Shown here one piece after another: positions 5,348 to 33,950 of a DNA stretch of 34,110 bases; position 1 is the stretch's first letter; every line of letters starts with the position of its first letter. The notes under the pieces were generated by a model. That model was not told the origin of the DNA and searched no databases. It was given only the letters and a program-made list of their open reading frames with translations. Origin of the DNA: Trichoplax sp. H2 (taxonomy: Eukaryota); the NCBI GenBank assembly GCA_003344405.1, contig NOWV01000181.1, forward strand, positions 1-34,110, given 5' to 3'. The position numbers were made by a program, and so were the translations under genes.

Positions 5348-5352
5348 TATGG

Positions 5353-8818: not shown

Positions 8819-11489
8819 ATATATATACCGGTAAAGTTGTGATAAATGTATTCATTTCCAAGCATAGTTCTGCCTTGATTTTACTAGTAACATAATACTA
8901 CCATCAATTGCTAAATTACTTTATAGATTGATAATTTTTTAGGTAACGTTATTCTCCCTGACTAACTAAACTGAATCCTTCGATAGATACAAATACCATA
9001 ATATCTGCTTGAATTGGCTATTTTACTTCAATTTTTCAATAATAGTATTAAAAAAGATGACAAGGTGGAAGATCAACTCTGATAACTGATTAGCCAATTT
9101 GATGAATCTTTATTGTTTAAGCTAATTAGTCAACAACTTTCACTGTTAATATTTCAATATCTTGTAAATTTTAACTTTTTACTCTTGGTCAAGTATTTTC
9201 ATATTCCATAACACAGATTTCAGCATTACCTCCCAAACTTATATTTTCATAAAACGACAATAAAATAGCAACGCTGTTATAATACATGTCTCGTTGCTTA
9301 TGCTTATAGTCATAGCTTTAAAATTAAATCATTGTCATCTTTACTCATGCAAAATGTTCTACATTGTTTTATTTCTGGCTATACCAATATTAGAATATAA
9401 TATAGCCGGCAAATGACTTAATGATGGGTGAAATATTTATCTTGAGGATATTATCCTCATTTGTTTTAGTTGAATTAAACAGATAAAAGCTCAGCACGCC
9501 TTGAATCTTGCTTAAATTACGATTATGCCATTATTAAATTAATTAAAAATAGTCAGATCGATGGAATAATTGTTTCAAAATAAATAGATGATGTCATTTA
9601 GGTATAACTGCCATGATGTTATGCTTTAGATGTCTCTCTATGTGATATGATATGAAACTGTTTGTAATCGGGTGACCATTCCTTTTGAAATCCTTTTAAA
9701 GTAGAAGAATTTAAAGTAGACTCCTTTAGACAGATTATTGCTGTGGATTCGTTATTATTTCTTCTTAATATCGTAAACAGTAATTACCTTATGTATCGGG
9801 TACCTTAATCATATCCTACACACCGTTGTTCGAACTTGCTTTAATAACCCTTGCAATTTACTATACCGTTACTACTTGTTTATTTACTTGCAGTCTTGTA
9901 ATTTTGAATAATCTTGTCGTAATGTTAATGTCTTTGATATTCGATGCATTTGTTGAAAACGATTCATTTTTTCTTACATAAGCGTAAATGTAACTTATAA
10001 GGCTAATCGATTCTGGATGTAATTCTTGATGCTAGTCTGTTTGATCAAATACAGTGCTAATAAATTGCTATTATAAAAAGCATAGGCAGGGATTAATAAA
10101 TCGGTTTTTAGCCTTTAAAAGACCCATATGAACTCGCTAATACATAAAGCATTGGTAGAAATTAATAGAAATAAGCAACTAATGAACAGATTTATATGAT
10201 ACAAATCAAGTAAATATGTCAGGTATGGAAGTGTAGCGGGATGATTAGAGGAAGCTGTAGAGAATTTTGCTTATAAATAGGAGCAATCATAGCCACATGT
10301 TGATTCTTTTGAAATAGTAGAATAAAGTGATATACGTGGGATAGTCATATTCTAAGATAGTTTTTAATTTCAGCTTATTATAGAATCGTCATAATTGAAG
10401 TTGTAGATTACTGCAGAATCTAATATGTTTGCTGGAACTAGTGCATATTTTAAAAAACTCTAAGCATTTTGGATTATAATTGTGGCGTTAAATCAGTTAT
10501 GACTATCGAGAAGAATTGTAATATGATTAGTATAAAGACAAATGCAGATTGTAAGCTTTAGATTAGTGAGAGACTAATGCAGATTGTAAGATGGTCATAG
10601 CCATAGATTCCGTGGCATTAACCCAGCTATGCTTATGGAAATGAACTATCCTATGATTAGCATTTCGCCAATAGATGTGAATCCAGTTGGACATGCATAC
10701 TAGCATATGATAGAATTTAGATTTGCTTATTTTATTGGGTTGCTACAATGAGCTTAATGATCATGCGTCCATGTATAGCATTTGACTATAGCCAAAGTAT
10801 GAAATCGGCTCATAGCAACTACGATATTTGAACGTCATAAATGAGAAGGACTTGCTTATAGGATGATTATGCTCCATAAGCTTGCCAATATCCAATAAAT
10901 TAGCGTCCATCTCTTGCTATACCTTGAATATAATTCAATTACATTGACTAGGTCAAGGACTATTTACGATACCCATCTAGAGCAATATCTTAAGCTAAAT
11001 CTTGAATATTTTTATTCTTCAGCAGCGGATATAATCTCAACTTACATCAATGTAATCGAATTTTATCACCGATAGGATGATGCAGAAACTACATCTACTA
11101 AACTCAAATATGTACAGTTTAATCGTAATATTGTCGATCAGGGAATGATGGCACCGACATATTTTCCAATGAGCTGCATTCGCACATCAAGCCATACGTA
11201 TAATCTACGCCAGCTAGCTAACTGATTGTGGCTCTAGAGGTTCTCTATCGAATACCAATAAATTTTCAATGCATCTCTAGTGATGCTCTATGAAAGTGGA
11301 TAGCCTGATGATGACCCTCTATCTACGGGTCCGGTCTATAGATTCTCCGTGTATTCTCTAACGATTCTCTATCGATCGATTAGCTGTAGAGGCTACTTAC
11401 GATTTCTGACGATCCTCTATCTATCTGGAATATAGGTATACGCATAGATCCTCTATGTTTTGGACTATATAGTTTTAATCCATTGATCC

Positions 11490-11815
11490 TCGATGTATTC
11501 CCTTGAGACCTTTCTCGATGTATTCCCTAGAGACCTTTGTCGATGTATTCCCTTGGGATCTCTCTCGATGTATTCCCTAGAGACCTTTCTCGATGTATTC
11601 CCTTGGGATCTCTCTCGATGTATTTCCTTAAAAGATCTGACTCGATGTATTCCCTAGAGACCTTCTCGATGTATTCCCTTGGGATCTCTCTCGATGTATT
11701 CCCTAAAGATCTGACTCGATGTATTCCCTAGAGACCTTTCTCGATGTATTCCCTTGGGATCTCTCTTCATGTATTCCCTAGAGACGTTTCTCGATGTCAT
11801 CCCTGAAAGATATTC
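11490..11815. repeat. 25-bp minisatellite, about 13 units (core TCGATGTATTCCCT + variant tail)
   Basis: Units end in AGAGACCTTTC, TGGGATCTCTC or AAAGATCTGAC. Confidence 0.95.
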
Positions 11816-12328
11816 CATCCATTCTCTAAATATTTCGTGCGTTACTTATCCAGCCTATTTTCAAGCTACCATATGATATACCAGTTACAAAATGTGTATG
11901 GTACCCTATATCCTATTNNNNNNNNNNNNNNNNNNNNCTCAACTTACATCAATGTAATCGAATTTTATCACCGATAGGATGATGCAGAAACTACGTACAC
12001 TAAACTCAAATATGTACAGTTTAATCGTAATATTGTCGATCAGGGAATGATGGCACCGACATATTTTCCAATGAGCTGCATTCGCACATCAAGCCATACG
12101 TATAATCTAGCATTTCTAGTGATGCTCTATGAAAGTGGATAGCCTGATGATGACCCTCTATCTACGGGTCCGGTCTATAGATTCTCCGTGTATTCTCTAA
12201 CGATTCTCTATCGATCGATTAGCTGTAGATGCTACTTGCGATTTCTGACGATCCTCTATCTATCTGGAATATAGGTATACGCATAGATCCTCTATGTTTT
12301 GGACTATATAGTTTTAATCCATTGATCC

Positions 12329-12678
12329 TCGATGTATTCCCTTGAGACCTTTCTCGATGTATTCCCTAGAGACCTTTGTCGATGTATTCCCTTGGGATCT
12401 CTCTCGATGTATTCCCTAGAGACCTTTCTCGATGTATCCCTTGGGATCTCTCTCGATGTATTTCCTTAAAAGATCTGACTCGATGTATTCCCTAGAGACC
12501 TTCTCGATGTATTCCCTTGGGATCTCTCTCGATGTATTCCCTAAAGATCTGACTCGATGTATTCCCTAGAGACCTTTCTCGATGTATTCCCTTGGGATCT
12601 CTCTTCATGTATTCCCTTGGGATCTCTCTTCATGTATTCCCTAGAGACCTTTCTCGATGTCATCCCTGGAAGATATTC
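12329..12678. repeat. 25-bp minisatellite, about 14 units (second haplotype)
   Basis: Same unit order as 11490-11815 plus one extra TTCATGTATTCCCTTGGGATCTCTC unit. Confidence 0.95.
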
Positions 12679-13666: not shown

Positions 13667-15936
13667 ATGGGCATCTTTACCAATTCTATCTTTACATTAC
13701 AGCTAAGTTCTACCGTTCATTTCAAGCGAAAGCAAGAAATTCGCCATCAAATTATCACTCATGATGGCACCATTTCTTACATGTTTAATCGAAAGGTAAT
13801 TAGCACAATTTGGATCATTTTTTCAATCGATAGTGTGGCCAAGAACCGTAGGAATGATGTTGTTGGGTATTGGATAGACATGGTCTAGTAATAAGACGAT
13901 GAGAATCGATATTTAGCGATTGTAAAGATAGCTTTCGATCACATGATTGTTCTAAATCGATGGAATAGCGATCAGAGCTATTGATGTTGATTGGGTGTAG
14001 TAAGATGGATATAAGCGATTCGTTCTATTAGCCTAGCAATGACGATTAATCTACCTAGCTACGTTAGTATCTGTATTTCAAGTAGCTTTCTTTATTGCAA
14101 AGATTGTCTAAACATAAATTTTGCTCATCGACCATATGATGACGATAAAGGATCATGTTTACTTTCTGTCATTATTAGCTTGCTATAGAGATGGCCATGC
14201 TAGAGTAGTTATCAAACAATTCGATAAACTACCATAATATCTGTATTTTAAGGAACTGTTGCTATTGCAAAGGTATACAGTAGTATACGTAAGCATAGTA
14301 GAAATACAAGATGAAGCAGTACTAACGGCGAACATGGCTGTTGTTTCTTGATAACAACGCCATGAAAAGTGATCATTATACTTCCGATCGTCATGGTTTG
14401 CTATGCAGAATCGATCTTGTCAATGGCAATGTTGTAACAGCACAGTGAGGATAGGCAATCTGATTAACCGCTTTAGTGTCTATGTTATATAGATTGTAAG
14501 TAGCCTTGGTTAATTATTGTAGAGATACAGTAGTGCAGGTGTAGAACAAGCTGAATGATTAAGTAATCGTTGATTACTGCTCAATAGGACAGCGAGAAAA
14601 GAGCTAATTTACTTTCATCACCTACATTTCTACCAATGGCTATATTCTAGTAACACAGAAATAATGCCAGATTCTCTCAATTAATTATTACTTAACCATA
14701 ATGATTCGATTACAAGTGGCCTTGACTACTGCAGAAATTTTATAAATGTAGTAGAAGCCAGTATTTTTGAAACCTTCTGTGATGACTTAAAAACAATATT
14801 TCAGGCCATGGGAAAAGCACAATATCAAGCAATAACGAATTGCTGACGATATGATAATTAAAGCTCGATGCACTACGATAAAAGAGAATGCTACTTACTA
14901 TACTTTTAGTACATGCACTTTTAGCCATGATTCGATGCTACTGTAGTAACACAAAAGTGCCGTCAGTTTCTATTAATTTTATCAATTATTACTACTGTAA
15001 ACTCTGCTGTGGAGATAGTAAGGGCGAATAGAAGCTAGTATTTTGTAAACATTCTGTAGTCAATCTATTTAATAAACCATATTCCAGGCTAAAGGTAAAA
15101 GCACAACGTAAAGTAATGACGAATTATGGACGATATGAAGATTAAGGCTCGATGGCACAGCGATGAAGGATAATACTATTCTATTTTAGGTCATCATTAG
15201 CTTATAAATGGCTCTATTTCAGTAGCCAAAAAAATAATACCAATTGCCATTGGTGACCATAGTCTGTAGATTGCAATTGGCCTTAACTACTATAAAGGGA
15301 GTGAAAGCATGGTAGAAGCAATTATTTTATCTGTTTTGAATGGAAATTAATTCTAATGGATGATTGCAGTTCCCGTAATTTGATCGAGTTGGAGCTAGAT
15401 CTTTAACATTCTGTCAACAAAGGTCACATTAAATAAGGCAGCATTGGCTGATAAAGTAGCTGATCTATAACGGCTTTGCAATCCAAGTTCACCATTGTAG
15501 AACCACTGTATAATAGGACTGCTATTCTATATATTGAATATAACTCATGTACTAGATGCTATTAAGAAGCTGCTATTCCATCGTTAGACTGTAAATATTC
15601 AATAAGTTAGAGACATAGTGTAATCATAGTATCTTCCATTTTTAAAATCTGGACCATGTAACGCCTAGATCGATCAATCTTATGATTGATACAAGTGATC
15701 AAAAGTCGATTGAATAAAATTGTGCTTGCATTTATAGGTTAATTTCCTTGTTATGGATGAAGGACAAGATTATCGAGATAGTTATAAAGGCAGAACAGCA
15801 GATAAACTAGCTATTCCTATCGTATCGTTGGCATTTATTGATGCTTGTATCCGGCAACATAAATTAGTCGACCACCAGGATTTCTTGCTAAGTGGCAAGC
15901 CTTCGTCTCAGTCTTTAGCGAAAGGCAAAATAGTGG
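13667..15936 (+). CDS. PARP4: PARP4 exons 1-2 (13667-13795, 15738-15936): BRCT domain
   Basis: MGIFTNSIFTLQLSSTVHFKRKQEIRHQIITHDGTISYMFNRK|VNFLVMDE...IPIVSLAFIDACIRQHKLVD is BRCT-like. An acceptor at 13633 suggests an upstream non-coding exon. Confidence 0.85.
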
Positions 15937-18900
15937 GTAAGTCTTGAATGATACTTTAATTATAGATTAATGAATTGATCTTTGATATAGATAGAAATGT
16001 TCTTGACAATCTTGTTAGACGAGTGTTTTTAAAAATAATTTGATTTGATACGGTGCTAGTTTCTTTAGAGCTAATATAAAATGTTCGTGCTACAATCTAT
16101 GTTTTACTCTTTCCATTTAACTGCAATTTAGCTTTCAATTGCTCAATAATTTTAAACATTCATAAAACGAATTAATAATGCGTAAAAAGTGTGAGCTAGA
16201 ATGGCTACAGTTTGTGTACGACTAGAGTTTAGGTTACTATCGTGATTGCAAGCTTTATATTAACAATATGGTACTAGACCTTAATGACGAGAATGCTCAT
16301 CGTTTGGTAGAATATAATTCAAGAATTATATTTCATGTAGTAATCCACAAAACACAATGCCCATGCTTGTTGTATACTAGTATATGTTTCATACTGATAA
16401 CGCTGTTGAACGATATCAAATCTTTCTTCCTTTCAGTTCAGGAGAGATATTTATGGATTGAATTAATCTTGAATAAGAGCTTGATATAATAACGATTTAT
16501 CAAGAATGTAGAGCTTAGCAATTTAACATCTTTTAGGTATTAACAAACTCAATCCTTCTTAGGTATTAACCTTTTCAATTATTTTTGTTTGCAATTAATA
16601 CTACCAGTGCCAAGGGTTTCTATTCCGAAGAGATCCCGTTATACAGCATTTGATTTAAACAAGATCCAGTTAAGTAACTGTAAATAGAGAGGCTTAAAGT
16701 TCAATATTGAAGTTTTTAGAATACCTTGCTACTTTGTAATCTCTCAAATTAAATAACATAGTTCTAATGTTATTACTTTACCTTACTGATTTATCCTAGT
16801 ATTTTGTATTTCATGTGGATAATGACGCTCTTACCTATTAGAATGAATTTTTTTTTCATAATCTCTCCAAGCTGCATAGCTAGCATATTTCTATGTCCTT
16901 TAAATGTGCAGGGATAAAGCCTTTGGAACACATTTCATACCACAATCTCTTCCAACCGCATTTTGCAACATTTCTATCTAGACCTTGTCATATAGAATGC
17001 AAGTGTCATATTTATTAGTTTACGGTTTTTATTCAACATTATAGCAGCCAATGTAGATATTAATTGAGCTTCGAAATCTTGTACATGTTTTAAATGCCCG
17101 TATGTATTTGCAATCACCTGGCCTATACTTATACAAACGATAAATACTACTGTATTTAATAAATCTTTACTATCTTTGCAAACCTCACTTTACATTTATG
17201 AGAAGTTATTTTACCATTTATAAATGCAAATTATAAGTAATATCATGAAATTATTGCTCGATAAAAAATGACCGTACTAGAACTAAACTGCCATTTTACA
17301 GTAAAGACATTTTCGTTATCAACATTCTCGTAATTGCTTCGATAATTAATGTATTAATTAGAGTATGGAATAATAACAAACAAGGAAGTGATAAATTTGA
17401 CAGCAATTATAATATAATCAAATTGAGCCTATTGCAGGTAATATTGTAATATGTAAAGTTCTTATAAATATCCCGTAAATACAATTCAAGGCTATATTGA
17501 AACCTCTCATTATGCATAGGATAATGGGATAAACGAAAAAGAAAGAAAATTTGCAGCTATCGAACTACATCAAGAAAGGACTGAAAATTTATCTTTCCGT
17601 GTGTATTCACATCGAAAAATGGTCAAACAGGAAAATATTCTTAATAAAAATAATATGAAAGATAAGGATTGCAATAACATCAGGGAATACCGATATTGCC
17701 AAGATCTTGATCAAGCTGTTCAATTATATTCATACTTGTATCATCTCTACACAAAGTCTCCACATAATTTGCAGAAATGTTGGACCACATTGCCTATAAA
17801 TATTGGTTCTGATAAAGCGAATGAGGTACATTTTTTACTGAATCGATTAAACAAACTAATATCATATTTTGTGATCATAGTCTTAACGTTTGAAAATTAA
17901 TAGTATAACTACAGTGAGGTTCTTCAATTTAAATTGTACAGTAGCTCTTAACGTAAGTCAATCATAGCAGTACCATATTTTGTGTTCATTGCATATATCA
18001 AGTTCTCTTCAGTTAAATTTGCAGCAGATGATGAAAATAATTTACCATATTACTGCGTCTATGATATGGATGGGCAATTGAAATCATTTTTCATCGTTGC
18101 AGGTGATGGCTGAATTCCAAGCTAATGTAACTGACCGCAGTTTATCTCAAAATGTAGCCTCGTTAATACAATGCCTATGGGTAGAAGCAGTCGGCGAGTT
18201 ACAAAGTATACTCTCAACTTCTGTAAATGAACTTAAAACTACCGATCTTGCGGTTGCAGAAGGCATTTTACTCAAGTTGAAGCAGAGCGTATCTGAAAGT
18301 AACCATGATAGCGTGACTGAGCTTAACAAACAATTTTACGAATTAATTCCTCACATAGATTCTAGTGTATACATCAACTCAAGACGATTAATCAGTCAGA
18401 AGCAAGATTTGTGCCAATTAATTCATGATATGATTACTGTTAATGAAGCAAGCAATTGGCAACTCACTGGCAGCGTTAATGCCCAATATAAGGCTCTATC
18501 GTGTGATATTCAAGAATTAAATGCAAACAGCGATGAATTTAACTCTATCAAGAATTATATCTTATCATCATTGAAGGAGTAAATCTAAATACTTTACTTG
18601 TTTGTTTGGATCTTATTAAAATTTTAATTAGCATTTGTTGAGTGATGCTGTAGAGGATCGATTTGAGATTTCTTTAAACGCTTTCCATTTTAGGAATGAT
18701 TCCACCACGGTCAACATAAAATATATATATTCTGTGGCTCGTAAAGTCGAGAATAAGTTATTTACTCATGAAATGGGTAATAAGAAACTATTATTTCATG
18801 CTAGTCAAGTAAGTTGAATTGGCTCTATCCCTATTCTTAGCCTAATCTTAATCTTGTGTCCTTTTGAATATGAATGAACTTACTCTGTTCGTAAAAATGA

Positions 18901-21900
18901 AATAGCCTAGGAACAAGATAGAAGACTTTTGCAATGAAATTTAAATATTTTTTAATAAATTTACTTTAGGTTAAAAATTACGTTGGCATTTTATCAAGGT
19001 AATATTTCCAGGATAAAGTATTGGTTAATTGATAATACTGTTTAGTGCAATAAACGAATTCGGTGATGATTTATATTCTACATCTGTATACTGTAGGGGT
19101 TTACTGTTGCCCAAAATAGTTGTAAGTGAGTATGGTGGCGAAAGATCGGATTCTGGTAATCTTGGTAGTGGAATTTACTTTGCCGATTCATGCAGGTTTG
19201 AAGAACATTATTTTGAGGCTTTTACTGATATTCATTGTATTGAGGCTAAGTAATATATATTATAATTCATCAGTACAAGTTTGCAATATTGCAACATCAA
19301 CAAGAATAATGGCACACGAATGATGCTCGTTTGCGAAGTAGCTCTAGGAAAGAGTAAAGTAAGCAAATTTCGGTCATAATTAGACTTTGATATCCTGATC
19401 GATTGTCGTAAATATTACGTTGCAAATGTAATATAGATTTATAGAGACCAACATTTAGAGCTTACTTCACCGCCATCAGGCTATGATAGTGTGCATGGGA
19501 TTGCCAGCTCTGAAAATGACCTATCCTATTTCACGGTAAGCTTTAAAAAGAATACGAATTAAATAAATTTTCATAATTTTAATTTTTTGTCTTGGTATGT
19601 TTTTTAGAATAACGAATACGTCATCTACAACTCAAAGCAACAAAAGCTTAGGTTTGTGATCTCATGATGGTAACTTATGTATATCCAAAAAGGAATTAAT
19701 ATCATGTACGCTTTGCAGGTATTTAATAGAATTTTCATTATCGAAAGACCCTACGAAGAAAATCAAATCGACTACAGGCCTAACTGGACATGAATTTATA
19801 CCATCACCTTTATTTCTTAATGGGTCAGGTAAAGTCAATTCTTGGGTACTTCACTATTCTCTTTTATTTCATATTCCTGATAGTTATTTGACAATATGTA
19901 TTGTTCTATTCAAGCAGTCCAAATTGACGTAAATGAGTTGCAAAATAATCAGTTGAATAAGCTCACCGAAGCTGGATTAAAGACAAGTAACAGTGAAACA
20001 CTTCCACTGACTGACGTTCATTTTAGAGTGAAATTATTAGACTTAGCTTCTGAGGTTTGAGCGATTGTAATGTAATTTTACAATATAAATAAGTAGATTT
20101 TTGATATTCCAGTTGTATAGCGACATATTACATCAATATTAGCAAATGTATTAATTGTATAATACAGGTTACATTGTAATCAAGTACAGTATGAACTGAA
20201 TTTATATTCAATGTTTGAATGGAGAATATGTCATGGATTACAACATTAGGTTGTGGTTTTGCAACGCTATTATAATAATTCGAATAACTCTATTGAAGCA
20301 AAGTACGTTTTCCCATTGGATGAAAGAGCTGCAGGTAATAGGGTGAATAAGAGTTTAATATTTTAGTCATAGTGTATGAAATCCTGATTCTTTTTTCTGT
20401 AGTTTGTGGCTTTGAAGCATTTATCAATAACAAGCACATTGTTGGTCAAGTTAAAGAAAAGGAACGTGCGCATAAAGAATACAAAGAGGCTGTCAGCCGG
20501 GGCGATGGAGCTTATCTTATGGATGAAGATTCTCCTGTACGTAAATAGTATATTTTTGATAACTGTTTGGCAATGTACGATTTTAGGGATTGCTGTACAA
20601 TTCGAGCTCTGTATTCTAGAAGTCGTTGTAAAAGATGATCTAATTACTTATCTTTATGTAACAGGACGTTTTTACCGTTAGCGTTGGCAACCTTCCTGCG
20701 AAAGCAAATGTTGTTATTAAGATTACATACGTAACCGAATTAGCTATAGAAGATGAATACTTAGATTTCTTTTTACCCTCTAATCTGGCTCCATGGAAGA
20801 CCGGAGCTGCTCTCTCTAACAAGACACAAGTAACGTCCTATTCAGAAACCTTCATCCTTTTTTAAATCTTCAAATGTGTTTAATGAAAATCGTATCCACT
20901 AATCAATTTCATGGCTTACTAGGATACAGTCGGTGTCGTCAAGATTGATGAGGCTAAAGCAATGTGAGAAATTCTGTTGTTATTTTGAGTAATAATACTA
21001 TAATTATTTGCAAACAAATTGCCCTAGTACGATTACGACAAATATCATTTTCTACATGTAAACCGAAAATTACTTGGCTAATTGTTCTCGTTTCATCTGT
21101 CATCTATTGATTAACTAAAGCGATGCATCAATACAAGTTAGCGTCGAAATGCCATTTGAAATTAGGGCCATCATGTCGCCAACGCATAATATCAAGCAAA
21201 AGGTAAGAATCGAAAGCTTTGGATAAGATTTTTCATGTTACTTTCTAAAAGCATTTGAAAATAACATTATTTGACAGTGCACTGCCACCAGAGCTGTTGT
21301 CGATACAGGAAAAATAACGTCGTTCGATAAAGGCTTTCGATTGCTCATTCGATTAGCTGAAATACACGTTCCTAGGATGTGGGCTGAAACTCATCCAGAA
21401 AAGGGCAGCCAGGTTAGTATTTAAGGACGATGAAATACGGATATATATTGCTACTCTAACTATACTGCATTTATAATTTCATAACTATACTACTCGTTAA
21501 CTATAAATTGTAGGCCTGCATGCTAACATTCTATCCAGAATTTGAAACTGTGGAAACGAAAGAGCCGGAAATTATTTTAGTTCTTGATATGTCTAATTCA
21601 ATGAAGGTCTCATTAACTGATATATCTTGGATTTACATAATCGGCATCTACACTCGTAAATTTGCGTTAGACTTGGCGTCATTCCAGACCCGGCATAATT
21701 TAAAATGGAATAACATTTTCTATCTTGAAAGGATTGCTTGCTTGATGTGAAAAAATTGGCATTATTGCTATTGAATAACTTACCATCAAATTGTCTATTT
21801 AATATTGCTGTATTTGGAACCTGTAAGCAATATAATTTATAAATTCTTTATACGGATTTGATGCATCATATCGATTTGAACAATTTTTATCGTCAAAAGC

Positions 21901-24900
21901 GCACAATGAACTTTTTCCTTGTAGCCAACAAGTTGCAAAGGACACTATCAATATTGCGCAGCAATTCATCATGGTAAGTTGAAGCAGATACTGCTGTTGT
22001 AATACTGCAGTTACTATACTTTTATATCAGTTAACGAATAATCTATATATCGCTTCAAAATATGAAGCTATCATCACTAACGTATCTGTCATTAATTTCC
22101 TAGACATTATCAGCTACATGGGGAGATAGCCAGTTCTTTAATATTTTAGATAATTATCATCACATTGCGAAAGGATTAAAGTCCAACGGAGCTTATAATT
22201 TGTTTGTAATATCAGATGGTCACTTTCCCGCTGAAAACTCAATTATTGACATCACCAGAAAAGAAATTAATTGTTTGAGAATATTTACATTTTCAATCGG
22301 GTTTGTGGTTCTCTACTCTTGAAAAGTTAATGCTAATCGTTTTGTATTTATGTTGGTTAATGTTAGGTATAAGATATTGCTTTTATGCAAGTTCGATACT
22401 TTTTTAATTCTTTAATTCTTTACCGTTTGATTATTATAATTTTGACTATGCAGGAATGTATGCAATCGTTACTTTATGCGATTACTTGCAAAAGTTGGGG
22501 CTGGTTACCATGAGCATTTTGATAGCAATTTAAAATCGAAATGGAATAGCAAGGTCGGTTGTTGTGTACCCATTATTTAAGGGATAATGATTATCTTCAT
22601 AGTAACAAGCTTTTCTAAAGTATAGTTTTCTTGCCAGAAAAGTTACTAATCATTTCTTTGAGATTTCAAACTACTCTCATTGTGGCTACGAAATTTATCT
22701 TTGGTAGATTAAGAAGCAGATTGAGAAAGCATTTCAGCCAACATTAACTTCTGTGAATGTAAATTGGCAACAATTTGGCCAAAGTTATCAATCAAATATG
22801 CAGGTATTATTCTGCTTATAAATAGAAGATAAAAGCATTCGGTATCAAACAAAAATTTTAAAACGTAAAAACATTGCAAATTTGATCTTAGTGAGGAATT
22901 GGATTAGTTGTAATTTCAACTTGCATTTATTATCAGGCGCCAGCTGATATTGTAGCTTTATTTAATGGATCACGGCAAGTAATCTATGGATTTATTCCTA
23001 ACTGCTTGCAGGTAGAATTATCGTTTGAACTATATGAACTACACTTCAGTTTGTGTATTACAAGCTTTTAGAAGAAAATTTTTCAGTATAGTTATTTATA
23101 CCTTGTAGGCAACCTTAGAGGCAGAAATAGGTGGGACACAAATTTCAACCGTCGTCTCTACTTCGGAATTAAGCAAGACATCAGGAAAGGTAACCGCCAA
23201 TCTTATACTTCTATTTTTATATTATACCTACACTTATACATCGCATCCGATTTACCACTTCTGGTAAAATATAACTGAATTCTAATTTCAATTCTTAAAT
23301 TCTTAGATCTTACACCAGTTGACAGCTCGAGCACTTATTCGCGATTATGATGAAGGTGCATACAATAATGATCGAACAAATCATGAGGTATATAATACAG
23401 TTAAAGTGTTATTAATATCGCTATAATCTATAGCATGAACTGACAATGGCAAATATGATTTGTAAAATTTATTAGGCGTTGAAGATTGATCAAAAGTCGG
23501 CTATTATTGAATTAAGTAAAGACTACTCTATTGTTAGTCCTTTTACAAGCTTTGTCGCTATTGAAGATCGAACTCAGGTATACGTACGATATCATCGTTT
23601 CTTAATACTCGTATTTCAACTCACATATATACCACTTATAGCAATCAATCTATTGCTCAAAATAAATATCAAGGAGTTAGATTACGAATCAGAGGTGTTC
23701 AATCTGGATAAACTTCTTAAAGCTGAGAACGTCGATTATCTACCTTATGTTTCGTGGAGTGGAGATTCGGTATTATACTTTAAGTTAATTATTTTTGACT
23801 TATTAGCTGAAATATTCGGAAATAAATTTGTTTTAATATGATGTATCCTAGTCTAGAAAATGCTTGCACATACAGCTATAGATTACTTATAGCTTCTAAA
23901 TATTTCTTCTCTTGATTAAGCTGTATTGAAATTGTTTGGAGGCTTACGGTACCTCAGTCGTAACAATAAGATGTGCTATAATTAGATAAAATTTCAATAT
24001 CATCCTTGAACGAAATTTTCGTAGTTTGTAAATTTGTTACACTAGGGTGATTTAATCGTAGGTTGTTGATTTTTGTTTCTTTTAGAGTCTTGCAGAAAGC
24101 CAAGAAATGTCCTCTACTGTTTGCCCTGTAAGTACAACTAGTCTAGACTCCCGCTTAATTTAGTGGAAATTAATTTAGTAATTTACCTCAGTAAGTATCT
24201 ATACTTTTATTGTTTATTTACCGTTACGTGGAAGTTATGGATCTTTACTGATGAATTTCTCGTGATTAATTACCTGCCAATAATATGATCTTCCATAACT
24301 ACATGAAATGACAACATCAGCCATGAATGGAATTTACTTAAGTCATACAATTATGAAACTAGGACGATGTAATTGTAAATTTTTGTGTTGCATACTTTCA
24401 TTATTTCTTAGATTATTACAGAGACTCAAGAAGGGCTCGGTCTTGATTACGCTGTAAGTATAACTAATTAATGGTAAATTTAGTATCGTTTGTGAACATT
24501 AATCAACGTCACTAAATATCTATGCTTATTATCAGAATCATTTGTTTTCCTTTGATTAAATGTTATGAATTCTTACTTATGGATTTTTTACTTAATTATA
24601 TGTCACACATAAGTTGGATGGGGTAGATGGGGATTATGAAATGGATACTGATAACTTTGTCCAGGAAGAAGCAGATGAAGAGAAATATTGTCCTGACTTC
24701 TTTTACGATTTTGCAATGGATTTATGCGTATCTGAATATGATGAAAATAAGCGGTCGAATTTTGTTAGTTACGACGGGTATGTTAAAATAGTGAGAATGG
24801 TGCAAGTTTTAGCATCTATTTTCTTTGTATTGTTGTAGAAGCCCAATTGCTGTATAGCACATTAGCTTCCATGCTATAGTTCCTCTGGTTCTTTTAAGTT

Positions 24901-27900
24901 ATAGTACTGACTTTAAATGTAGCGATTACAATTGTGTAAGGGACTAGGTAGGGGATTATTATTACGCTTATGTCCTATTCTAAAGTTTGCATTGGAGTAT
25001 CAAGGAAGTTGCTGATACTTAGTGCTATATTATTTCGTTGCTTAATTCATCGATGTCATCACATCCTAATAATTAGGTAGAATCTGTAGTGTGCGTGTAA
25101 GACTGATAAGATGACATCTTTTTTAGCTTTTCCAATACTTTATACATTTTCAGCTTATATCGGGATATTATCAGCTATGTACAACGTTGATTTTATTAAT
25201 ATTCATCTGATGTCAATAAATTTTTTTGCTATCTACAGTAATGCCGAAGAACGAGAGTATATAAGTACTGCAGAAGAACTTTGTAAATTTAATGAGCCCG
25301 CATGTTTGGACCTTATGGATTCGAACAGTCTGGAAATGTATGTATGCTGCATTTAGTCCGTTGAATGGCACTATTAATAATTGCTATGATTCGCTGCTTT
25401 ACAGTAAAAATGTTTCGTGTACTTTATCGGCTATCTCTATATAAATTCGGTCTTCTAATTTGTATAGAGTTGGCTCGCAAAGTACAGTAAACATGAAAAT
25501 TTTAATTTAGTGTGCAGTGATAGAATTAATCAACATTGCTGGAGTTGTATATCAAGCTGTTTAATAATATTTATGTTACTTACAATTAAATTCAATAACT
25601 GATTAGACTCTAGCAAAAAGAATAATAAATTAGTGACAGGTTTACGGCATATAATATTGGATTCAAATGTGTAACTTAGAGTTGACCAGATATACCTTAG
25701 CAGGAGTAGATTTCGAGATTTCGATATAAGAATTATGGTGATCTATGTATGATTTCGTATTAGAATTGCTGGACAATTTATTAAAACATAATCTAGAGTA
25801 CATAATATCTTTTACTTCATCTTACAATTATACGTATAAGTATCGGAATATAAGAAAGAACCTTCAGTTGACTACTTTCCTTCATTTTAAAGCAGTCAAT
25901 TTCTCTACAAAACTGTTTACTGCATATGGTTAACCACTGTTTTAGAATATGATTCCGTAGTTAATCCAAATCACTGAAGTAAATGCAATATCTCGACATA
26001 ATTTTCAACTTTATTAGATTTGATATATCATAGGTAGCTTAGATTATAATGTTTGAAATGGCGGCATATAATAAATGTAATTAGTTGTCAGTTAGTACCT
26101 AGCCTTTTAACATGGTAATTATAGTAAATTGATATGAAGATAGAATTGTCTGTGTAATTTCACATCGGAGCAGTTGATATCCTATCAATGCTGTGTAATG
26201 ATGACTTTAATTTCATTACTTTCAATTCTGATTTATCTTCTAATTTCTAAATTCATTAGTGCAATTGCATTAGTATTATATATAGCACCGTTTATGTTTA
26301 TGTCTCACTAGCATGCTCATCTGCTAATATTCTGTTTAGAATCGTTTAGCAATCAAGTTTTAAGATCGGATAATTTTTCATTTTAATTCAAAAATACGAA
26401 GGCTAGTTTGCTATGTTACACGGCCTTGAGGTTTAGTTCTATTAAATAAGCAGTTCTATGAATCCATTAGTCCAAATGGCGTGTTGCCATGCAAATTGCA
26501 TTATAGCTATTACTGCGTAACAGCGTACACCGACATTTTCTAATTAAGTAAATCATCTAATTTCCATTTAATTATTTAGTGGGTCTAAGGCAATGTCCAT
26601 GTCGTCTGATAATTGTGATGAAGACTTTTCGGTTATGGCAAAACTGCCCCATAGGCGACGAGAACTACGTAAGTTTCACATTACGCGCAATGTATGTATC
26701 TATAACTTACTGCCACTTATTCTTCCTTGAATGGTTACTTGGTAAAGTTTTCGGGATATATTTATCTGAGATATCAACAGGGCTGTTTAGAGTTACTCTA
26801 TATTTTATGTTGACATACCTTATAGCTATGCTCATTAGAGCCTAAATATTATTTTTGCATTAAATTTCTTGCTCTTTAACATGAATCTTTAAAGAAATCG
26901 GCTATACTAAATGAATCAATTTTTAAACCCTAGGCACTTAACATTTGCAGACGTCTTTTTGAATAGAATCTGTTATAGTTATATAATTCATTTTTCTTAC
27001 ATTTTCTAGGTGGTAAAGAACTACTGGCCGACAAAGGTATTAATTTGATTGCCAATTCGTTTACTGGATTATAATGGAATAATTTTGGATAGCGAGACAA
27101 ATTAATAGCTTATTGTAGTATAGTTGCGCTCATAGATATAAATTACCGAATGATACGTTACCATATCTCTCTACAAGTACATTTATTAAAGCGAAATTAT
27201 TTCTGTGTTAATGCTAGCATAAGCTAAATAATTATTGAATCTCTCAGCTGTAAATTATTGCTCTGTTATATCCTGGATAATCATTCATTAGATTCTAGGC
27301 CGCACGGATCTTCCAAGATTGGTACAGCTTACTGACTATCAGATGACATCATATTTATTTCTATATAAATTTAAGGCATTTTAAAGATTTAGAAGTAGCT
27401 TTTATTTTCCTTTATTTGAAACTACCACATCTACCTATTTAATTTAGAAGCTGAAAAGTACTTACCCAAGTTGGCTAGCCTATCTTCGAAAATGCTTAAA
27501 TCCAGTAAGAGACTAGGCTTTTGTTGATTTTATTCATTGTTTGATTGTCGAGCCAATGCTAACAATTATTCGTGTTATTTTGTATAATTTTTACCGCCAG
27601 TAGAAGATTCAAAGCCAACTGAAGGTAGTTACTACAAAATGTATTGATTAAACAATGCGCGAAAAGTATTTTTGTTTTAATCTAGTTTAATAGCAAGAGT
27701 TTTTTGGACTTTAAATCCGAAAAGCTCTGACAGAACTTTCTTTTGGAAATTTCTTGCTGAGGATTTCTACTATTACAATTTAGTTTCCATAGCAGTATTA
27801 TTCTGTATTTGTAAAGTAACTTTAGTTATTGGATTTTTAAATAAAAAATTTCACTGAAAGCTTTGCAATTCAATTAGTAAATAGACACATTCTTATAAAA

Positions 27901-30900
27901 CTTAAGATAGACTTGATATAGTAAAGGACAATCAATTCTTTACTAATTTTTCATTTAATAGATTCTAAGAAGCGAAGACGTCGTAAAGTAATGGATCAGT
28001 CATCAGGTATTCTGTTATTGACAATTGCTGTAATGCGATGCTCATAGAATAGGTATATGTGCAGGGTAATTCGGAATTTTTGCTAGTAAATTCGTGAAAC
28101 ATTTTACTAGAGTTATTGATCAATACTTTCTTTTGGATTTCAAATAGCAGCAAGTCTTACTATGCCACTTATAACTTTCGTTTATATAGCAGTGCTAGTC
28201 TCAGTATCATATTGTTATAATTAACAATAGTAATATGGTGGATAATTATTTTGAGTAAAATGATTGCATGATAGATATAAGCATTATAAGTGTTGCGATA
28301 TTCCATTCTGCCATCGGCTTGATAGATTCTGTAGCATCTAAAAGTCTTTTTGGAGGCACTGAGTCTGCTGGTTACTGTTTCGGTGCCGATACTCTCAACG
28401 AAGGTAATTAAAACCGAATTAGGAAAGTATAACTTTATCATTTCTGTAATTTAATTTAATAACACTATTTCTAGAGCTAATAGAGTATGAATTCTATTAA
28501 GCGCTAAAATAGTGAACTCCCACCAACTACAACAGAATTTTATTACTTCATGGACTCTCTGTGTGGTCGATATGATGTCAGTCATATACGGCAATTGCGA
28601 TTTGACATTTTACAATTGGATTAATAGATTCTACGATATTTAAAGGTCTTCTGAGAAGTGCTCAGCCTTCTGGCTTAAGCTTTGGAGGACGTGCTGCCGG
28701 ATCAGGTAATTGTAGCCGAATTAAATGCTACATAGTTGTAATGCCGATGAGATAAAGAAATAGCCCTTTAGTTGCATCGATTTTTTAATGAATTTTTTTT
28801 CCCTTTGACACCTATCAGATCGATAGCTGATTTATGATGTTCGATGCAACATAATAATTGTGATCTTTATTTCATAATTAAATTGTTACGTTTTACAGCA
28901 TATGAAAGTCTTCCTGAAAGAACTGAGTCATTTGGTTTTAGTTCTGGTTCGGGTATTTTCATCAAAGGTATTTATATCTGAACTTGAAAACGTTAAATGT
29001 GTTGCTTTCAGTTTGTTGTGACGGTATCATTTCTGTGATTAATTAATTTCCGGTGTCACTAAATCGTGAAGACATTACTACACATGACATATAGTAATCA
29101 CATACTAATCACAACAGTTTTGTATGGCGAATATTATTTTACGCCTTTGATAGCTATCATTTTATGTATTCCTCATTCTACGTAGTTCAGAATTCTATTC
29201 TTGTTAGAATTGTATATCGTAGCTAAAAATTAAAAGCTAGTACACTAAATTTGGCGATATACCAAAAGTACCAATTTGCAGACTTATTTTATAAATAGCG
29301 ATTCATTTAGCTCAGCAAATTATTCTATTTTATATCCCCAAATTTCCTTACTTTGATGGCTTTGATAGTGATATCGTAAAGCATTACTCTTGAAGGTTAC
29401 TGAATAATTTTATGACTGCATTTCCAATTTGTAGCAACCAATCTCGCTAAACCATTAACAGCTTCCGATGATAGCGGTATCAATATTATTATTACTGTAC
29501 TAGAAATAGAATTTACAGTAACTAAATGATAGATGAATCTACTTTGTGTATTGGTTTCCTTTTTGATGCATTAAAGCAATTAGTCATATACATCGTAATT
29601 GGTATCATGCTGCAGGTCCCGCAGTGCCAAACATTCTTAAAAAACGTGGTTGGCGCCCCGACTTTGCTCCTCGTGCTGTCAATTTAGGTAATAGCATCCA
29701 GGATTCGACGGCTTCAAATTCTTTGAAAATTTTTGTTGCTATAACACTATTCGCAAGATAAATTTACTATAATTTCGATTTCTATAAGGTAGGATAAAAT
29801 ATAATACGTCGTATGTAAGGCCAATTTTATCTTTTAGTGATGCCAAGACAAATTCATTGCCAATTTCGTTTCACCTCTTTGATAGAAATCACTTTTTGTA
29901 GTTCGTATTCTAAGTACAGTACTTAGAATCTTGAATTGTATATACGATATTTAGTATACTATTGCAGGACAGTAAAGGCTACTTCCGTAAATTAGTTATG
30001 AACTTAAATCTATAGGATAGTTCTCTTAGTAACATATCATCGCTGTCATGAAATCATTCTCTGCTATGTATGTCCCTCAATATATCTTTACTTGCTTGTA
30101 AAGTATTGCAATCCCTTTTGAATTAGTCTGCCTAAATTTTTTTACTTAGGCATAATTTAAAACACTACACACGAACTAGCCGTAGTTGTGAACTTACGCT
30201 CTCTAATTGTACTAACTATAAGATAGTAATAGACATAGTACTACAAAGAGGGATTTAACAATCATAAATGTCACTTTTATGATTCCTTGCCTCCTTTGCG
30301 CCAACGGAGTAAAGTGTTTAGTTGCGTTCACTCGTTCGGATTGCAAAATTAGTTTCCAATAATAAACAATTTTTAGCCTAATGTTAGCGAAAACCGAAAC
30401 TTTAATTAATGCAAAGTTTTTAAGCTATTATCTTGAAGTTATAAAATGCTTAATAGCTGCAGCACCATTGGAACACTCAGAGTATCCGCTTCTACCGCCG
30501 TCTCTACCATCCAACAGATTGCTAACTTCTGACGATCAAGGCAAGTTAATTTATGTTACTATTTAAGAAATTGATCAACTATTAATTCAATTACGCTAGC
30601 AAGTTATGACCCATTTAGTGAATTAAATAAGATGTTTAAAAATTGATGCTATAAACGTATGACTTAGATGATAATTGTCATGCATGAGTATTTGGAAGAG
30701 GATTCACCTGCAGCACTCTCTATTTATACTTATAATGTATTTTCACGTCTCATTTATTATATCGAAGTGCAATATTAAACAGTATCTATATCTATATTCA
30801 TATCGATGACAGATAGAAACCGATGTACTCAGCAATTCTCAAATTAAAGTATATTATATATGATATTGTAATTAATGATGCACCCAGTATTGTGTTACTA

Positions 30901-33046
30901 GTTATTTGAAATTAGTAGTGGCACGTGCAACTTACAAGTATTATAGCTTGAGGTATTAGTAAATGGCTATTAAAGTGAACCGTAGTTAAACTAGTCACTA
31001 ACGTTGTTCGAATCATTTGCGTGATAATCAATTAGTGTCAATGAATTCATCAGTGCTCCCTTCCCATTAATAATTATCATAAATAGATTTTCTAATATCA
31101 ATAAATATTGTATCTATTTTCTCCTTGCTCATTGATCGTTTGTAATGAATGCTATTCGTAGCACGTGTGAAGGAAAAGAGGCTTATTTCAAAGTCAATAT
31201 CGATGTTTGCTAAGTCTCAGCAAAATAGTACCGCTTTTCCTGTAGAGAAAGAAGTACTTCGTGATAGTCGCCGCAGTGATGACGTAAATATCGGAAGTGA
31301 GCTTTATTCTGCATCAACCGTTTTTCTATCCCTTCCCCCCGCTACCGCAGCTTTGAATCGAACAAGAGGTCAAAAAAGCACAGCATTTAGGCGTAGTAGA
31401 GGTATGGTAGTTACTAAAATAAAATTTTGTATCATATATATGTACGTATTTACATTTAAAAGATTTAGAACATTCAATAATCGTGTTGTGTACGTTAACT
31501 GAACTTGCAGAATAAATATTATAAATAAGAACGTATCTTTAAAAATTATTCATTTTCAATAAAGCATCAGTTGTAATAGAAGCTCAAATTTACAGGCATC
31601 AAATTAAAAGAAATAATTTTTTATATAGGAAGGAATTTGCAACTTGCTAGCATATTTTTATTAGTCAGAAGGAGCATTTAACGTTCTGATTTAATTGTTT
31701 TTTAGTTTTAGCGAAAGCGCTAATCGATGAAGTTGACGGTCAAGATAAACCTCCGACGGCGCTACATTTTGGTAGTATCGGTACGATCCCCTCTTTTAAT
31801 TGTATCGTTTATCATAGATTAAAGTAAACCGTATTATGTTTGTATTACAGATCAAATGGATGAATTCAGCCCATCGCAAGGTTTACTTCAAAAATACTTG
31901 TGTCAATAATTTTACGCGTGTATCTGTAAGATTTTAAATTATTCTTTATTGTGAATTTACTATTGATCTTAAAATTTAGAAGCACACTTTGTGGGTGACT
32001 ATTCACCTACATCACCATCAGGTATGAAGATAATATAGTTATTAATTAAATCTTGGTTGCTAGTTATACGCTGTTACAAAATTGGTATTGTTTTTGTTTA
32101 TGTAAATCATTAAACTTTTGAAGCCGAAGGCAAGTGGACAATTGATTTACCAAAGTCACCGAAGCCCAATTACGAACAGGTTTTAGAACATAATCTAGAA
32201 GTTATGTGCAATATTAACAGTTTAGGTTGATGTAGGAGGTTTTTATTCAATTTTTTGCTTAAGAATAAATTATTACGGAGTGAAAACATAAAACAGTCAA
32301 TTAGTTTATGTCCGTACTTAATAATTGGATCTAAGTCACTTATTGCCTATATGTAATGTTTTAATCAATCGCTAAATCTATGTCATGATGAATCATTGGT
32401 TTAAATAATGAACTACAATCAGATCAAGAATCTACAGTCTAAGGTATGTACGTATGCTATGTTAAGGGTTATGGTGATAAGTTAGTCTATAGTTTTACGA
32501 TCAAGGTAAATCGGCTGGCTACCGTCATTTTATAGGAAGGATATTGGGATTTAACGGATGAAATTGCTGATGTTATCAACACAACAAAGGATTATCTACG
32601 ATCAGTTCTTCAGAGTTGTGGCATTCAATCATTTGGTATAGTACAACGAGTATCGCTAATGCTGGAGTATACTTTGTTGCATCTGTACTTATATTAATTC
32701 TTCTATCGCAATATTTATATGCCTATTAAAATTTGAGTATAGAACTCTGACACTCTATATGGTCGACTACTTCAATGATATAATCGTTGTTTTCGTTTAT
32801 GTAATATCGATGTTTTATATGTGCATTGTATTATTAGGTCTAGCGGCATATAATGACATTGTTCGCATGGTTATAACCATGCTTATTATAGTCATGTTCA
32901 AGGACATATCTACGCTGACTGAAAGTGTCCATCGAGGTAAGAAATGGTTTACAGGCATGGACAAGAGATATCCATCGCTTCTCCATCGAATGGAATTGGG
33001 TCAAAATTGGGAAAGTGCAAAATTGAAACTAATTGGTAAAGCTTAA
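13667..33046 (+). CDS. PARP4: Poly(ADP-ribose) polymerase 4 / vault PARP homologue, about 55 coding exons, about 1830 aa (manual model)
   Basis: N-terminus MGIFTNSIF resembles vertebrate PARP4 (MGIFANCIF, from memory). Domain order BRCT, PARP_reg, PARP catalytic, VIT, vWA, linker, C-terminal domain is diagnostic of PARP4. Phase-consistent exons were traced by hand from ATG 13667 to TAA 33044-33046. Linker exons are less certain. Confidence 0.92.
14638..15330. repeat. Degenerate tandem repeat of about 280-300 bp, about 2.4 copies, in PARP4 coding intron 1
   Basis: Recurring blocks tagtaacac, tagaagc.agtatttt, aaaagcacaa, gacgatatga, ta.agctcgatg, ggcctt.actact. Confidence 0.75.
16608..18578 (+). 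CDS. PARP4: PARP4 exons 16608-16668, 17362-17437, 17520-17825, 18103-18578: post-BRCT region and PARP regulatory (helical) domain
   Basis: Phases are consistent. LSQNVASLIQCLW...AEGILLKLK...LNKQFYELIPH...QYKALSCDI matches the PARP_reg pattern. Confidence 0.85.
18694..19828 (+). CDS. PARP4: PARP4 catalytic ART domain exons (18694-18808, 18970-18998, 19097-19195, 19274-19358, 19437-19535, 19608-19651, 19719-19828)
   Basis: LLFHAS|...GILSRGL...GNLGSGIYFADSCSTSLQY...CEVALG...YDSVHG...NNEYVIYN...RYLIEF: PARP signature with H, Y and E. Confidence 0.95.
19915..21412 (+). CDS. PARP4: PARP4 VIT domain and following exons (19915-20054, 20250-20334, 20403-20536, 20665-20829, 20923-20963, 21121-21202, 21278-21412)
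   Basis: IEAKYVFPLDERAAVCGFEAFINNKHIVGQVKEKERAHKEY...DVFTVSVGNLP is a classic VIT signature. Confidence 0.95.
21514..23769 (+). CDS. PARP4: PARP4 vWA domain and downstream conserved exons (21514-21606, 21732-21822, 21900-21973, 22104-22300, 22454-22553, 22708-22803, 22937-23011, 23109-23189, 23307-23387, 23476-23577, 23674-23769)
   Basis: IILVLDMSNSM (DxSxS), FNIAVFG, FVISDG, IFTFSIG, LHQLTARALIRD, IVSPFTSFVAIE. Confidence 0.93.
24086..32021 (+). CDS. PARP4: PARP4 low-complexity linker encoded by about 20 small exons
   Basis: 24086-24127, 24412-24453, 24614-24777, 25239-25337, 26580-26668, then phase 1-1 exons 27010-27036, 27292-27321, 27448-27504, 27601-27624, 27962-28006, 28326-28403, 28628-28705, 28899-28967, 29435-29476, 29616-29687, 30457-30540, 31162-31401, 31706-31771, 31851-31880, 31980-32021. 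All are open in frame with plausible splice sites. No homology support is available. Confidence 0.6.
32124..33046 (+). CDS. PARP4: PARP4 C-terminal (MVP-interaction-like) domain exons 32124-32179, 32423-32443, 32536-32635, 32838-33046
   Basis: IKNLQSK|EGYWDLTDEIADVI...GIQSFG...KWF...YPSLLHRMELGQNWESA. The LQxxxGxW and LELGxxW-type motifs are typical of PARP4 C-termini. Confidence 0.85.
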
Positions 33047-33950
33047 CATGCTATAGCAACAGTACCGTCGTGTACAATGCATAATTCAAGTAGATCGTGT
33101 GACCAGAATACTACATCTTGTGTACTGTTTATCGCGGCCGATATCAGGTTTTTAACCGTTTAATCGATTCAAAATTTAAAAATTGCTATCGCTGCACATT
33201 TATCGAATAATTATTTAATCGTTGTAATAGTCAATATGTCATTGTTACAGTGTTAAATACTGTATTACAGTAGAAATAACTATGTTAGGATAATTCTGTT
33301 AGACTATCCTTATTTAGTTAACTTCTAATTTGGATATACTGTATTTTAATATAGCACTGACTTTTTATGACAGTGACACTTATACACATACTGAAATTAT
33401 AATAGTTATAATAGGGAATGCAAATCATCTGCTTACAGTTCGAATCATTGTAATTGTAATTTACTTATGGTAGACTGTAAATTATCATGGAAATGTTCCG
33501 TGATAGGACATATCGTAATCTGACTATTCTGTATTAGTCATTACATGTCTATGTTCGTAAATACTGTTGTCTGCATTAAGGGAGCAGTAGCTAAAATTAA
33601 TATCTAATTCAGTAAATGATTCTAATGTTAATTGTATTAACTATGACTCATGAACTATTGAGGAATAGTATATAAATGCAGTATATCGTGAAATAAAGAA
33701 GAATTGNNNNNNNNNNNNNNNNNNNNAAAATTGAAACTAATTGGTAAAGCTTAACATGCTCTAGCAACAGTACCGTCGTGTACAATGCATAATTGAAGTA
33801 GATCGTGTGACCAGAATACTACATCTTGTGTACTGTTTATCGCGGCCGATATCAGGTTTTTAACCGTTTAATCGATTCAAAATTTAAAAATTGCTATCGC
33901 TGCACATTTATCGAATAAGTATTTAATCGTTGTAATAGTCAATATGTCAT
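33019..33950. repeat. 224-bp duplicated block (33019-33242 vs 33727-33950) across gap 33707-33726
   Basis: Near-identical, includes the last PARP4 codons and stop, differs by a few SNPs. Confidence 0.9.
33243..33706 (+). mobile_element. LTR-like insertion downstream of the PARP4 stop, truncated by the gap
   Basis: Begins TGTTAC exactly where the duplicated blocks diverge (after GTCAT). TATATAAA at 33669-33676 is followed by AATAAA at 33692-33697. Absent from the second copy at 33950/33951. Confidence 0.6.

Follow-up and report, generated by a model that had tools for sequence, protein, structure and literature searches.

Here we describe a PARP4-like (vault PARP) gene on a 34,110-nucleotide (nt) stretch of DNA from Trichoplax sp. 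H2 (contig NOWV01000181.1 of assembly GCA_003344405.1; hereafter the window), in which 15 short exons between positions 27010 and 32021 are all multiples of 3 nt long and all phase 1-1. These exons lie in the linker, or tether, that would connect the catalytic and ITIH-like body of the enzyme to a C-terminal domain docking on the vault shell. The reading that we consider probable is that the disordered linker of this placozoan PARP4 is built from the 15 exons, joined in order in the main messenger RNA, and that their uniform phase came about by tandem duplication. Both borders of 11 of the 15 exons are confirmed by RNA, and the acceptor of a twelfth, the 240-nt exon, is confirmed as well.

The splice joints were taken from Logan contigs of four sequencing runs mapped on positions 15000-33600 of the window. 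X11 and X14 are recorded as RNA and X7, guessed to be RNA, behaves so; these three RNA-like runs come from two studies. X5 lacks joints and covers introns, and is therefore DNA-like. Fifteen of the 55 joints reported are listed, and all statements on single joints refer to these; contigs are assembled data, in which rare variants are lost. Eight joints (26668>27010, 27036>27292, 27321>27448, 27624>27962, 28006>28326, 28705>28899, 28967>29435 and 29476>29616) were found in X11, X14 and X7 alike and not in X5. Joint 27504>27601 was found in two of the three (X14 and X7). Joint 28403>28628 was seen as 14-letter loose ends in X11, and 29687>30457 as loose ends in X11, X14 and X7 whose letters are those of the neighbouring exon. 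Joint 30540>31162 occurs in X11 and X14 with three differing letters in place of 31162-31164, which we take to be an allele because both runs show many other differences from the window. In the bin 25557-26177, inside a 1242-nt intron, depth was 0 in the RNA-like runs and 2.58 in X5; the joints are therefore not carried by DNA, and DNA carry-over is small. The exons of the row are listed below, together with their support, which for some includes P0151, a T. adhaerens gene prediction and not a transcript.

27010-27036, + strand: row exon 1, 27 nt, phase 1-1; joints on both sides in X11, X14 and X7.
27292-27321, + strand: row exon 2, 30 nt, phase 1-1; joints on both sides in X11, X14 and X7.
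27448-27504, + strand: row exon 3, 57 nt, phase 1-1; joint 27321>27448 in three runs, 27504>27601 in X14 and X7.
27601-27624, + strand: row exon 4, 24 nt, phase 1-1, with a CAG/TAG tandem acceptor at 27601/27604; RNA joints.
27962-28006, + strand: row exon 5, 45 nt, encoding KKRRRRK, a basic patch resembling a nuclear localization signal (NLS); joints on both sides in three runs.
28326-28403, + strand: row exon 6, 78 nt, copy A of the phenylalanine-glycine (FG) exon (SLFGG, CFGA); joint 28006>28326 in three runs, loose end 28403 in X11, paralogy z scores 21.4 and 23.4.
28628-28705, + strand: row exon 7, 78 nt, FG exon copy B (SFGG); loose end 28626 in X11, joint 28705>28899 in three runs.
28899-28967, + strand: row exon 8, 69 nt, FG exon copy C (SFGFSSGSG); joints on both sides in three runs, z 23.4 to copy A and 11.6 to copy B.
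29435-29476, + strand: row exon 9, 42 nt; joints on both sides in three runs.
29616-29687, + strand: row exon 10, 72 nt; joint 29476>29616 in three runs, exon end carried by loose ends before 30454 in X11, X14 and X7.
30457-30540, + strand: row exon 11, 84 nt, encoding PLLPPSLP, with a GC donor (GCAAGT); loose ends 30454, joint 30540>31165 in X11 and X14.
31162-31401, + strand: row exon 12, 240 nt; acceptor from RNA, donor from the model only (score 5.6), 96% identity to T. adhaerens TRIADDRAFT_61583.
31706-31780, + strand: row exon 13, 66, 69 or 75 nt depending on the tandem site; splice scores, and P0151, which uses 31706-31780 (75 nt).
31851-31880, + strand: row exon 14, 30 nt, encoding SPSQ, the least certain of the row; frame, weakest splice scores (1.9/1.8), absent from P0151.
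31980-32021, + strand: row exon 15, 42 nt, encoding YSPTSPS; model, present in P0151.

All 15 exon sizes of the original prediction were recovered, by script or, for the 84-nt exon, by reading, and all are multiples of 3. The motifs KKRRRRK, FG, PLLPPSLP, SPSQ and YSPTSPS each lie, in peptides read from the model, within the exon to which that prediction had assigned them. Two details needed correction: the 84-nt exon has a GC instead of a GT donor, and the '66-nt' exon (31706-31771) could also be 69 or 75 nt long, its three tandem acceptors (31706, 31712 and 31718) and three donors (31771, 31774 and 31780) giving only sizes that are multiples of 3. At the tandem acceptor of row exon 4, X11 lacks joint 27504>27601 and has just 19 letters to the left of joint 27622>27960, a pattern that suggests use of the TAG acceptor at 27604, 3 nt 3' of the CAG, or an allele. 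YSPTSPS, which matches the heptad consensus of the RNA polymerase II tail at all seven residues, occurs once, and also in T. adhaerens P0151; it may simply be a proline-directed phosphorylation site. The linker as a whole is 485 residues long, serine-rich (67 serines) and not alignable among homologs, and the 240-nt exon (31162-31401) gave no Pfam match.

A single reading frame is free of stops across the 15 exons, the other two containing 14 and 37, and it gives phase 1-1 throughout. From 26668|27010 to 32021|32124 the introns form an unbroken row of 16 in phase 1, whereas only 6 of the other 38 introns of the gene are in this phase. After exons 1-31 there are 20 phase-0, 4 phase-1 and 7 phase-2 introns; the phases are 0, 0, 2, 2 and 1 in the proximal linker and 0, 0 and 1 at the C terminus. 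The contrast in phase with the folded part of the protein thus holds, upstream phases being mixed, with the nuance that nine phase-0 introns follow each other over exons 26-33. This second stretch (22708-24453) contains eight consecutive exons whose lengths are multiples of 3 (96, 75, 81, 81, 102, 96, 42 and 42 nt) and lies partly in the conserved ITIH-like region.

The row might still have been an artefact of exon picking, in which frame-compatible AG..GT segments of AT-rich DNA (the G+C content of the window is approximately 32%) were selected by the reader of the sequence, and material for such a selection is plentiful: 251 AG..GT segments within 26900-32300 are multiples of 3 and open in the phase-1 frame. 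We regard this explanation as practically untenable. RNA contigs from two studies show both borders of 11 exons and the acceptor of the twelfth, the chance of 11 RNA-confirmed exons in a row being multiples of 3 is (1/3)^11 on length alone, and the exon chain connects the conserved regions upstream and at the C terminus within a single open frame. RNA rules out the artefact for row exons 1-12, which confines it to 31851-31880 and to the exact borders of 31706-31780.

The origin of the row is recorded most clearly in the three FG exons. When all exon pairs, each with 30-nt flanks, were compared against shuffles, the exons at 28326, 28628 and 28899 emerged as tandem duplicates (z 21.4, 23.4 and 11.6), each encoding one FG unit, and these exons also share their intron starts (families D10, D12 and D18). 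The two 78-nt units, copies A and B, lie 302 nt apart and match at 82 of 145 ungapped positions including flanks, compared with 40.9 +/- 5.4 (maximum 59) in 5000 random pairs. For three exons this similarity demonstrates that a phase 1-1 exon was duplicated in tandem along with its intron, and we infer the same origin for the other 12. Four exons of the row also start with ATTCT after a similar acceptor, and outside the row the two 42-nt exons at 24086 and 24412 form a pair (z 8.6). Since only symmetric exons can duplicate, or be resized by threes, without loss of frame, the uniform phase would most likely be a historical trace of growth in which a phase 1-1 exon and its intron were copied in tandem, after which the copies would have diverged fast, as disordered sequence does in general. 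Symmetric 1-1 exons are described in an excerpt of PMC6335736 as arising by exon duplication and shuffling and as prevalent in T. adhaerens.

Several observations weigh against this account, or against parts of it. Paralogy is demonstrable for 3 of the 15 exons, the next pair (27292/27962) reaching z 4.4 and the others lying at or near noise. The last three exons (31706, 31851 and 31980) fall outside the listed joints and depend on splice scores and frame, two of them also on P0151; depth bins are too coarse for these exons, and the part shown without cover is evidence neither way. Contigs cannot reveal minor isoforms, and the joints listed are 15 of 55. Finally, breaks in the contig graph are commoner in the linker than across the folded part, which could reflect alleles, retained introns or alternative joints. 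Inclusion of all 15 exons in every cell type is an extrapolation from the order seen in the contigs.

The original prediction had seen in the row a combinatorial cassette, any subset of which could be skipped in frame. The arithmetic of this claim stands, since 15 exons that are all multiples of 3 and phase 1-1 can be removed in any combination without a change of frame; combinatorial splicing itself is not supported by the transcripts available. A regulated cassette, in which cell type or condition would vary the length of the tether and its motifs (the basic patch, FG units and serine-proline sites), would suit the phases of all 15 exons and the partition of motifs exon by exon, and in tropoelastin the same layout accompanies extensive cassette splicing (PMC12554196, in part). 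The repeated contig breaks in the linker, where contig depths change, and the lack of the 30-nt exon 31851-31880 from P0151, albeit only a gene prediction, point the same way. However, all listed joints are consecutive and none skips an exon. In X7, ten of them, the first at 15935>16607 and the last at 27622>27960, have the depth figure of one and the same contig; it is 4581 nt long and agrees with the exon sum to within approximately 20 nt, which suggests one continuous route through exons 2-41. The mapped stretch contains 53 introns in the model, so that the 55 joints reported leave space for about two extra joints, and T. adhaerens is described in an excerpt of PMC6142364 as having less exon skipping than cnidarians and the ctenophore. 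We therefore think regulated skipping unlikely.

Equally improbable, in our estimate, is that intron retention is the variation that matters, producing through an early stop a PARP4 without its vault-docking domain, or a degraded transcript. It is favoured by contigs of the RNA-like runs that span entire introns and reach into the exons on either side (27977-28353 in X11, X14 and X7; 27634-27989, 28938/28959-29462, 29658/29673-30373 and 32150-32444), while silent stretches in the same runs stand at depth 0; by an in-frame stop 2-33 codons into every intron of the row; and by the prevalence of this mode outside bilaterians as given in the part of PMC6142364 seen. On the other side, random-primed total RNA libraries are expected to contain unspliced precursor, and contig depth, with a single value for each contig, cannot rank the forms. 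Ordered joining of the row in the main mRNA remains the reading that we prefer. The 377-nt contig 27977-28353, which holds intron 28007-28325 and both its borders, has depths of 74.4, 43.2 and 9.7 in the three RNA-like runs, in X11 near that of the spliced joint. A search of 13000-34110 against Rfam found nothing in the linker introns and only a sub-threshold snoZ165 (21525-21602; 27.7 bits against a gathering score of 90). Contigs of X7 match the window up to intron positions 21243 and 30448 and then run for 255 letters outside it; these may be insertion alleles or chimeric contigs.

The FG units of the triplicated exons are part of a wider enrichment. The 485-residue linker contains 5 FG dipeptides where 1.1 are expected, a count reached in 27 of 10000 shuffles. 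In 23 homologs of at least 1500 residues with a linker of at least 150 residues, delimited by a conserved motif, the linkers hold 110 FG against 34.8 expected (3.2-fold), as compared with 67 against 71.9 in the remainder of the same proteins, and in 15 of the 23 the number of FG is 3 or more and no less than double the expectation. Repeats inflate these counts, which do not represent independent events: lineage-specific tandem repeats surround FG (xxFGxx) in homologs P0078, P0017, P0026, P0025, P0029 and P0039. Six homologs scanned lacked a Nucleoporin_FG match in Pfam, and enrichment by itself is too little to class the linker as an FG-repeat domain of the nucleoporin type. A literature search, whose coverage left out subscription journals, returned no report of FG enrichment in PARP4 linkers. 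One might go further and read the tether as a conserved FG-repeat region, built in placozoans at one repeat per exon by tandem phase 1-1 duplication, in which the FG units, with the NLS-like patch beside them, would provide vault-bound PARP4 with a nucleoporin-like surface that is cohesive or binds transport receptors, and the array would let repeat number shift in frame over evolution, perhaps also by rare skipping. We rate this idea as speculative and rather doubtful. Like FG nucleoporins, the linker has spaced FG in serine/glycine-rich disordered sequence (SLFGG, SFGG, SFGF); unlike them, it has just five FG in 485 residues. The FG-repeat reading, if true, would bear on the old question of a link between vaults and nuclear pores, and the enrichment offers a testable handle on the role of the tether inside vaults. 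In three homologs the linker has Pfam matches of another kind (P0018 1490-1555, P0011 1292-1355 and P0025 1333-1385), either to actin, with approximately its first 60 residues matched (E 4e-12 and 5e-10), or to synaptobrevin (E 1.4e-9); exon capture or the fusion of gene models could account for them.

By analogy, the nearest known layout is that of the tropoelastin gene (ELN), all splice junctions of which are phase 1:1 and permit cassette-like exon removal (PMC12554196, excerpt). In both the tropoelastin gene, as described in the same excerpt, and the PARP4 row, a low-complexity, largely disordered region is made of many short phase 1:1 exons with one module per exon, which allows in-frame loss or duplication of exons. 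The two proteins are unrelated, and tropoelastin is built in this way over its whole gene, with extensive cassette splicing documented, whereas the row comprises 15 of the 55 exons of PARP4, with no skipping among the listed joints. The linker occupies the same place in the same architecture as that of human PARP4 (vPARP), between the ITIH-like region and the MINT/MVPID domain, although the linker sequences cannot be aligned. In the sections of the sources seen, the human ITIHL-MVPID linker is described as intrinsically disordered and fast-evolving (PMC10450202), and in a cryo-EM map of the vault only the C-terminal MINT domain of PARP4 could be built (PMC12280208).

The likeness to micro-exon genes that had been proposed for the row is weak. 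Micro-exon genes of schistosomes have symmetric exons in multiples of 3 nt, mostly up to approximately 36 nt, which are skipped in frame, and encode small secreted proteins. Here 4 of the 15 exons are 30 nt or shorter and the largest is 240 nt, in a large intracellular, multidomain enzyme of 1819 amino acids with no secretion signal worth mention. As a splicing system, the row is ordinary unless skipping appears. Its value is as a clean, RNA-backed case from outside the bilaterians of a disordered region made of same-phase exons, with duplication still visible in three of them, and it bears on the debate, as far as the portions seen of PMC6335736 and PMC6142364 go, over whether symmetric exons came first and skipping later.

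The rest of the gene was modelled as follows.

13667-33046, + strand: PARP4-like (vault PARP) coding region, 55 exons, 1819 amino acids in the model; RNA joints, spliced alignment to homologs P0002, P0018 and P0011, no internal stop, PARP_reg.
24086-24127, 24412-24453, 24665-24777, 25239-25337 and 26580-26668, + strand: proximal linker exons 32-36, end phases 0, 0, 2, 2 and 1, the first two being the 42-nt duplicates; model, joints 25337>26580 and 26668>27010 in all three RNA-like runs, pair 24086/24412 at z 8.6.
32124-32179, 32423-32443, 32536-32635 and 32838-33046, + strand: C-terminal exons 52-55, encoding a putative MVP-binding-like domain, end phases 0, 0 and 1; model, an X7 contig (32150-32444) whose ends fit donors 32179 and 32443, contig pieces beginning at 32837, and 24 of 48 homologs at 32780-33037.

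The coding sequence of 5460 nt runs from the ATG at 13667 to the stop codon at 33044-33046 with 0 internal stops. Between 18694 and 23769 it was modelled with a purpose-written spliced protein-to-DNA aligner, the ends of the gene being set by splice matrices and codon usage; three homologs gave 24-25 identical exons there. RNA joints fixed 19 junctions of the model. Beyond 17518, X7 record 21 extends for 3849 contig letters and X11 record 2 for 3693, and model exon sums agree with the contig ends to within approximately 20 nt; the model is hence correct within a few codons, without each single border being assured. For the proximal linker exons, homologs gave no support beyond the RNA joints and the 24086/24412 pair. 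Three earlier gene models were discarded: codon usage and splice matrices alone produced spurious micro-exons, and bonuses for tblastn cover led to read-through of short introns.

Comparison with homologs confirms that the gene is PARP4-like and that the exon row belongs to its linker. Forty-eight proteins of >1300 residues matched the window in tblastn, covering 13667-13795, 15738-15938, 17550-23775 and 32780-33037 in this order. The first two segments were aligned by 9-14 of the 48, and homologs scanned have BRCT there; in single + strand exons of the window, BRCT_2 scored 18.1 bits (E 0.0033), under its Pfam cut-off of 27.3. For the PARP regulatory domain and the catalytic domain that follows it, 47 of 48 homologs aligned at 19086-19664. 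PARP_reg scored 30.5 bits against a cut-off of 26.8 in the same Pfam scan, and its exon as query gave 203 matches at E <= 0.001 among 1.84 billion representative proteins, the long ones 30-41% identical; a protein word search with the PARP exon, restricted to longer proteins, returned 0 matches. The model peptides include LLFHASQ, GIYFADS and NNEYVIYN, which we take to carry the H, Y and E of the PARP1 motifs. The ITIH-like region (VIT and VWA) follows, with 20250-21421 aligned by 47 and 21514-23775 by 26-45 of the 48 homologs. Spliced-alignment scores were 1715-1788 against proteins with VIT and VWA_3, and the VIT end reached 21.8 bits, under the Pfam cut-off. After the long linker, the predicted C-terminal MVP-interacting domain (32780-33037) was aligned by 24 of 48. 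BRCT, PARP, VIT and VWA domains together, the architecture of PARP4, were found by Pfam in the six matches scanned. The gene thus aligns lengthwise with BRCT-PARP-VIT-VWA proteins, and the exons lie in the linker that separates the ITIH-like region from the C-terminal MVP-binding domain, in agreement with their original assignment to the PARP4 linker.

The best named match was a T. adhaerens 'uncharacterized protein' of 148 amino acids, TRIADDRAFT_61583, and the 96% identity of the 240-nt exon to it marks the DNA as that of a placozoan closely related to T. adhaerens. The prediction P0151 starts within the 240-nt exon, has 31706-31780, 31980-32021 and 32124-32179, omits 31851-31880 and ends in an intron. 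Part of the PARP4 linker (31162-32179) is therefore annotated as a separate 148-amino-acid protein, and the gene is split in the public T. adhaerens annotation, which our model corrects.

Just past the 3' end of PARP4, loose ends at 33242/33243 occur in all four runs, including the DNA-like one, and depth beyond them is 94-2114 (33242-33600), with an N gap at 33707-33726; 33242-33600 probably represents a repeat of high copy number or a junction in the assembly. At the other end of the window, two intronless paralogous open reading frames of 251 (open-ended) and 260 residues lie on the minus strand at 1-753 and 4598-5380, neither with a Pfam match at E <= 0.01. Upstream of the PARP4 start, two 25/75-nt tandem repeat arrays (11489-11804 and 12328-12667), approximately 840 nt apart and with an N gap between them, appear to lie in a duplicated segment.

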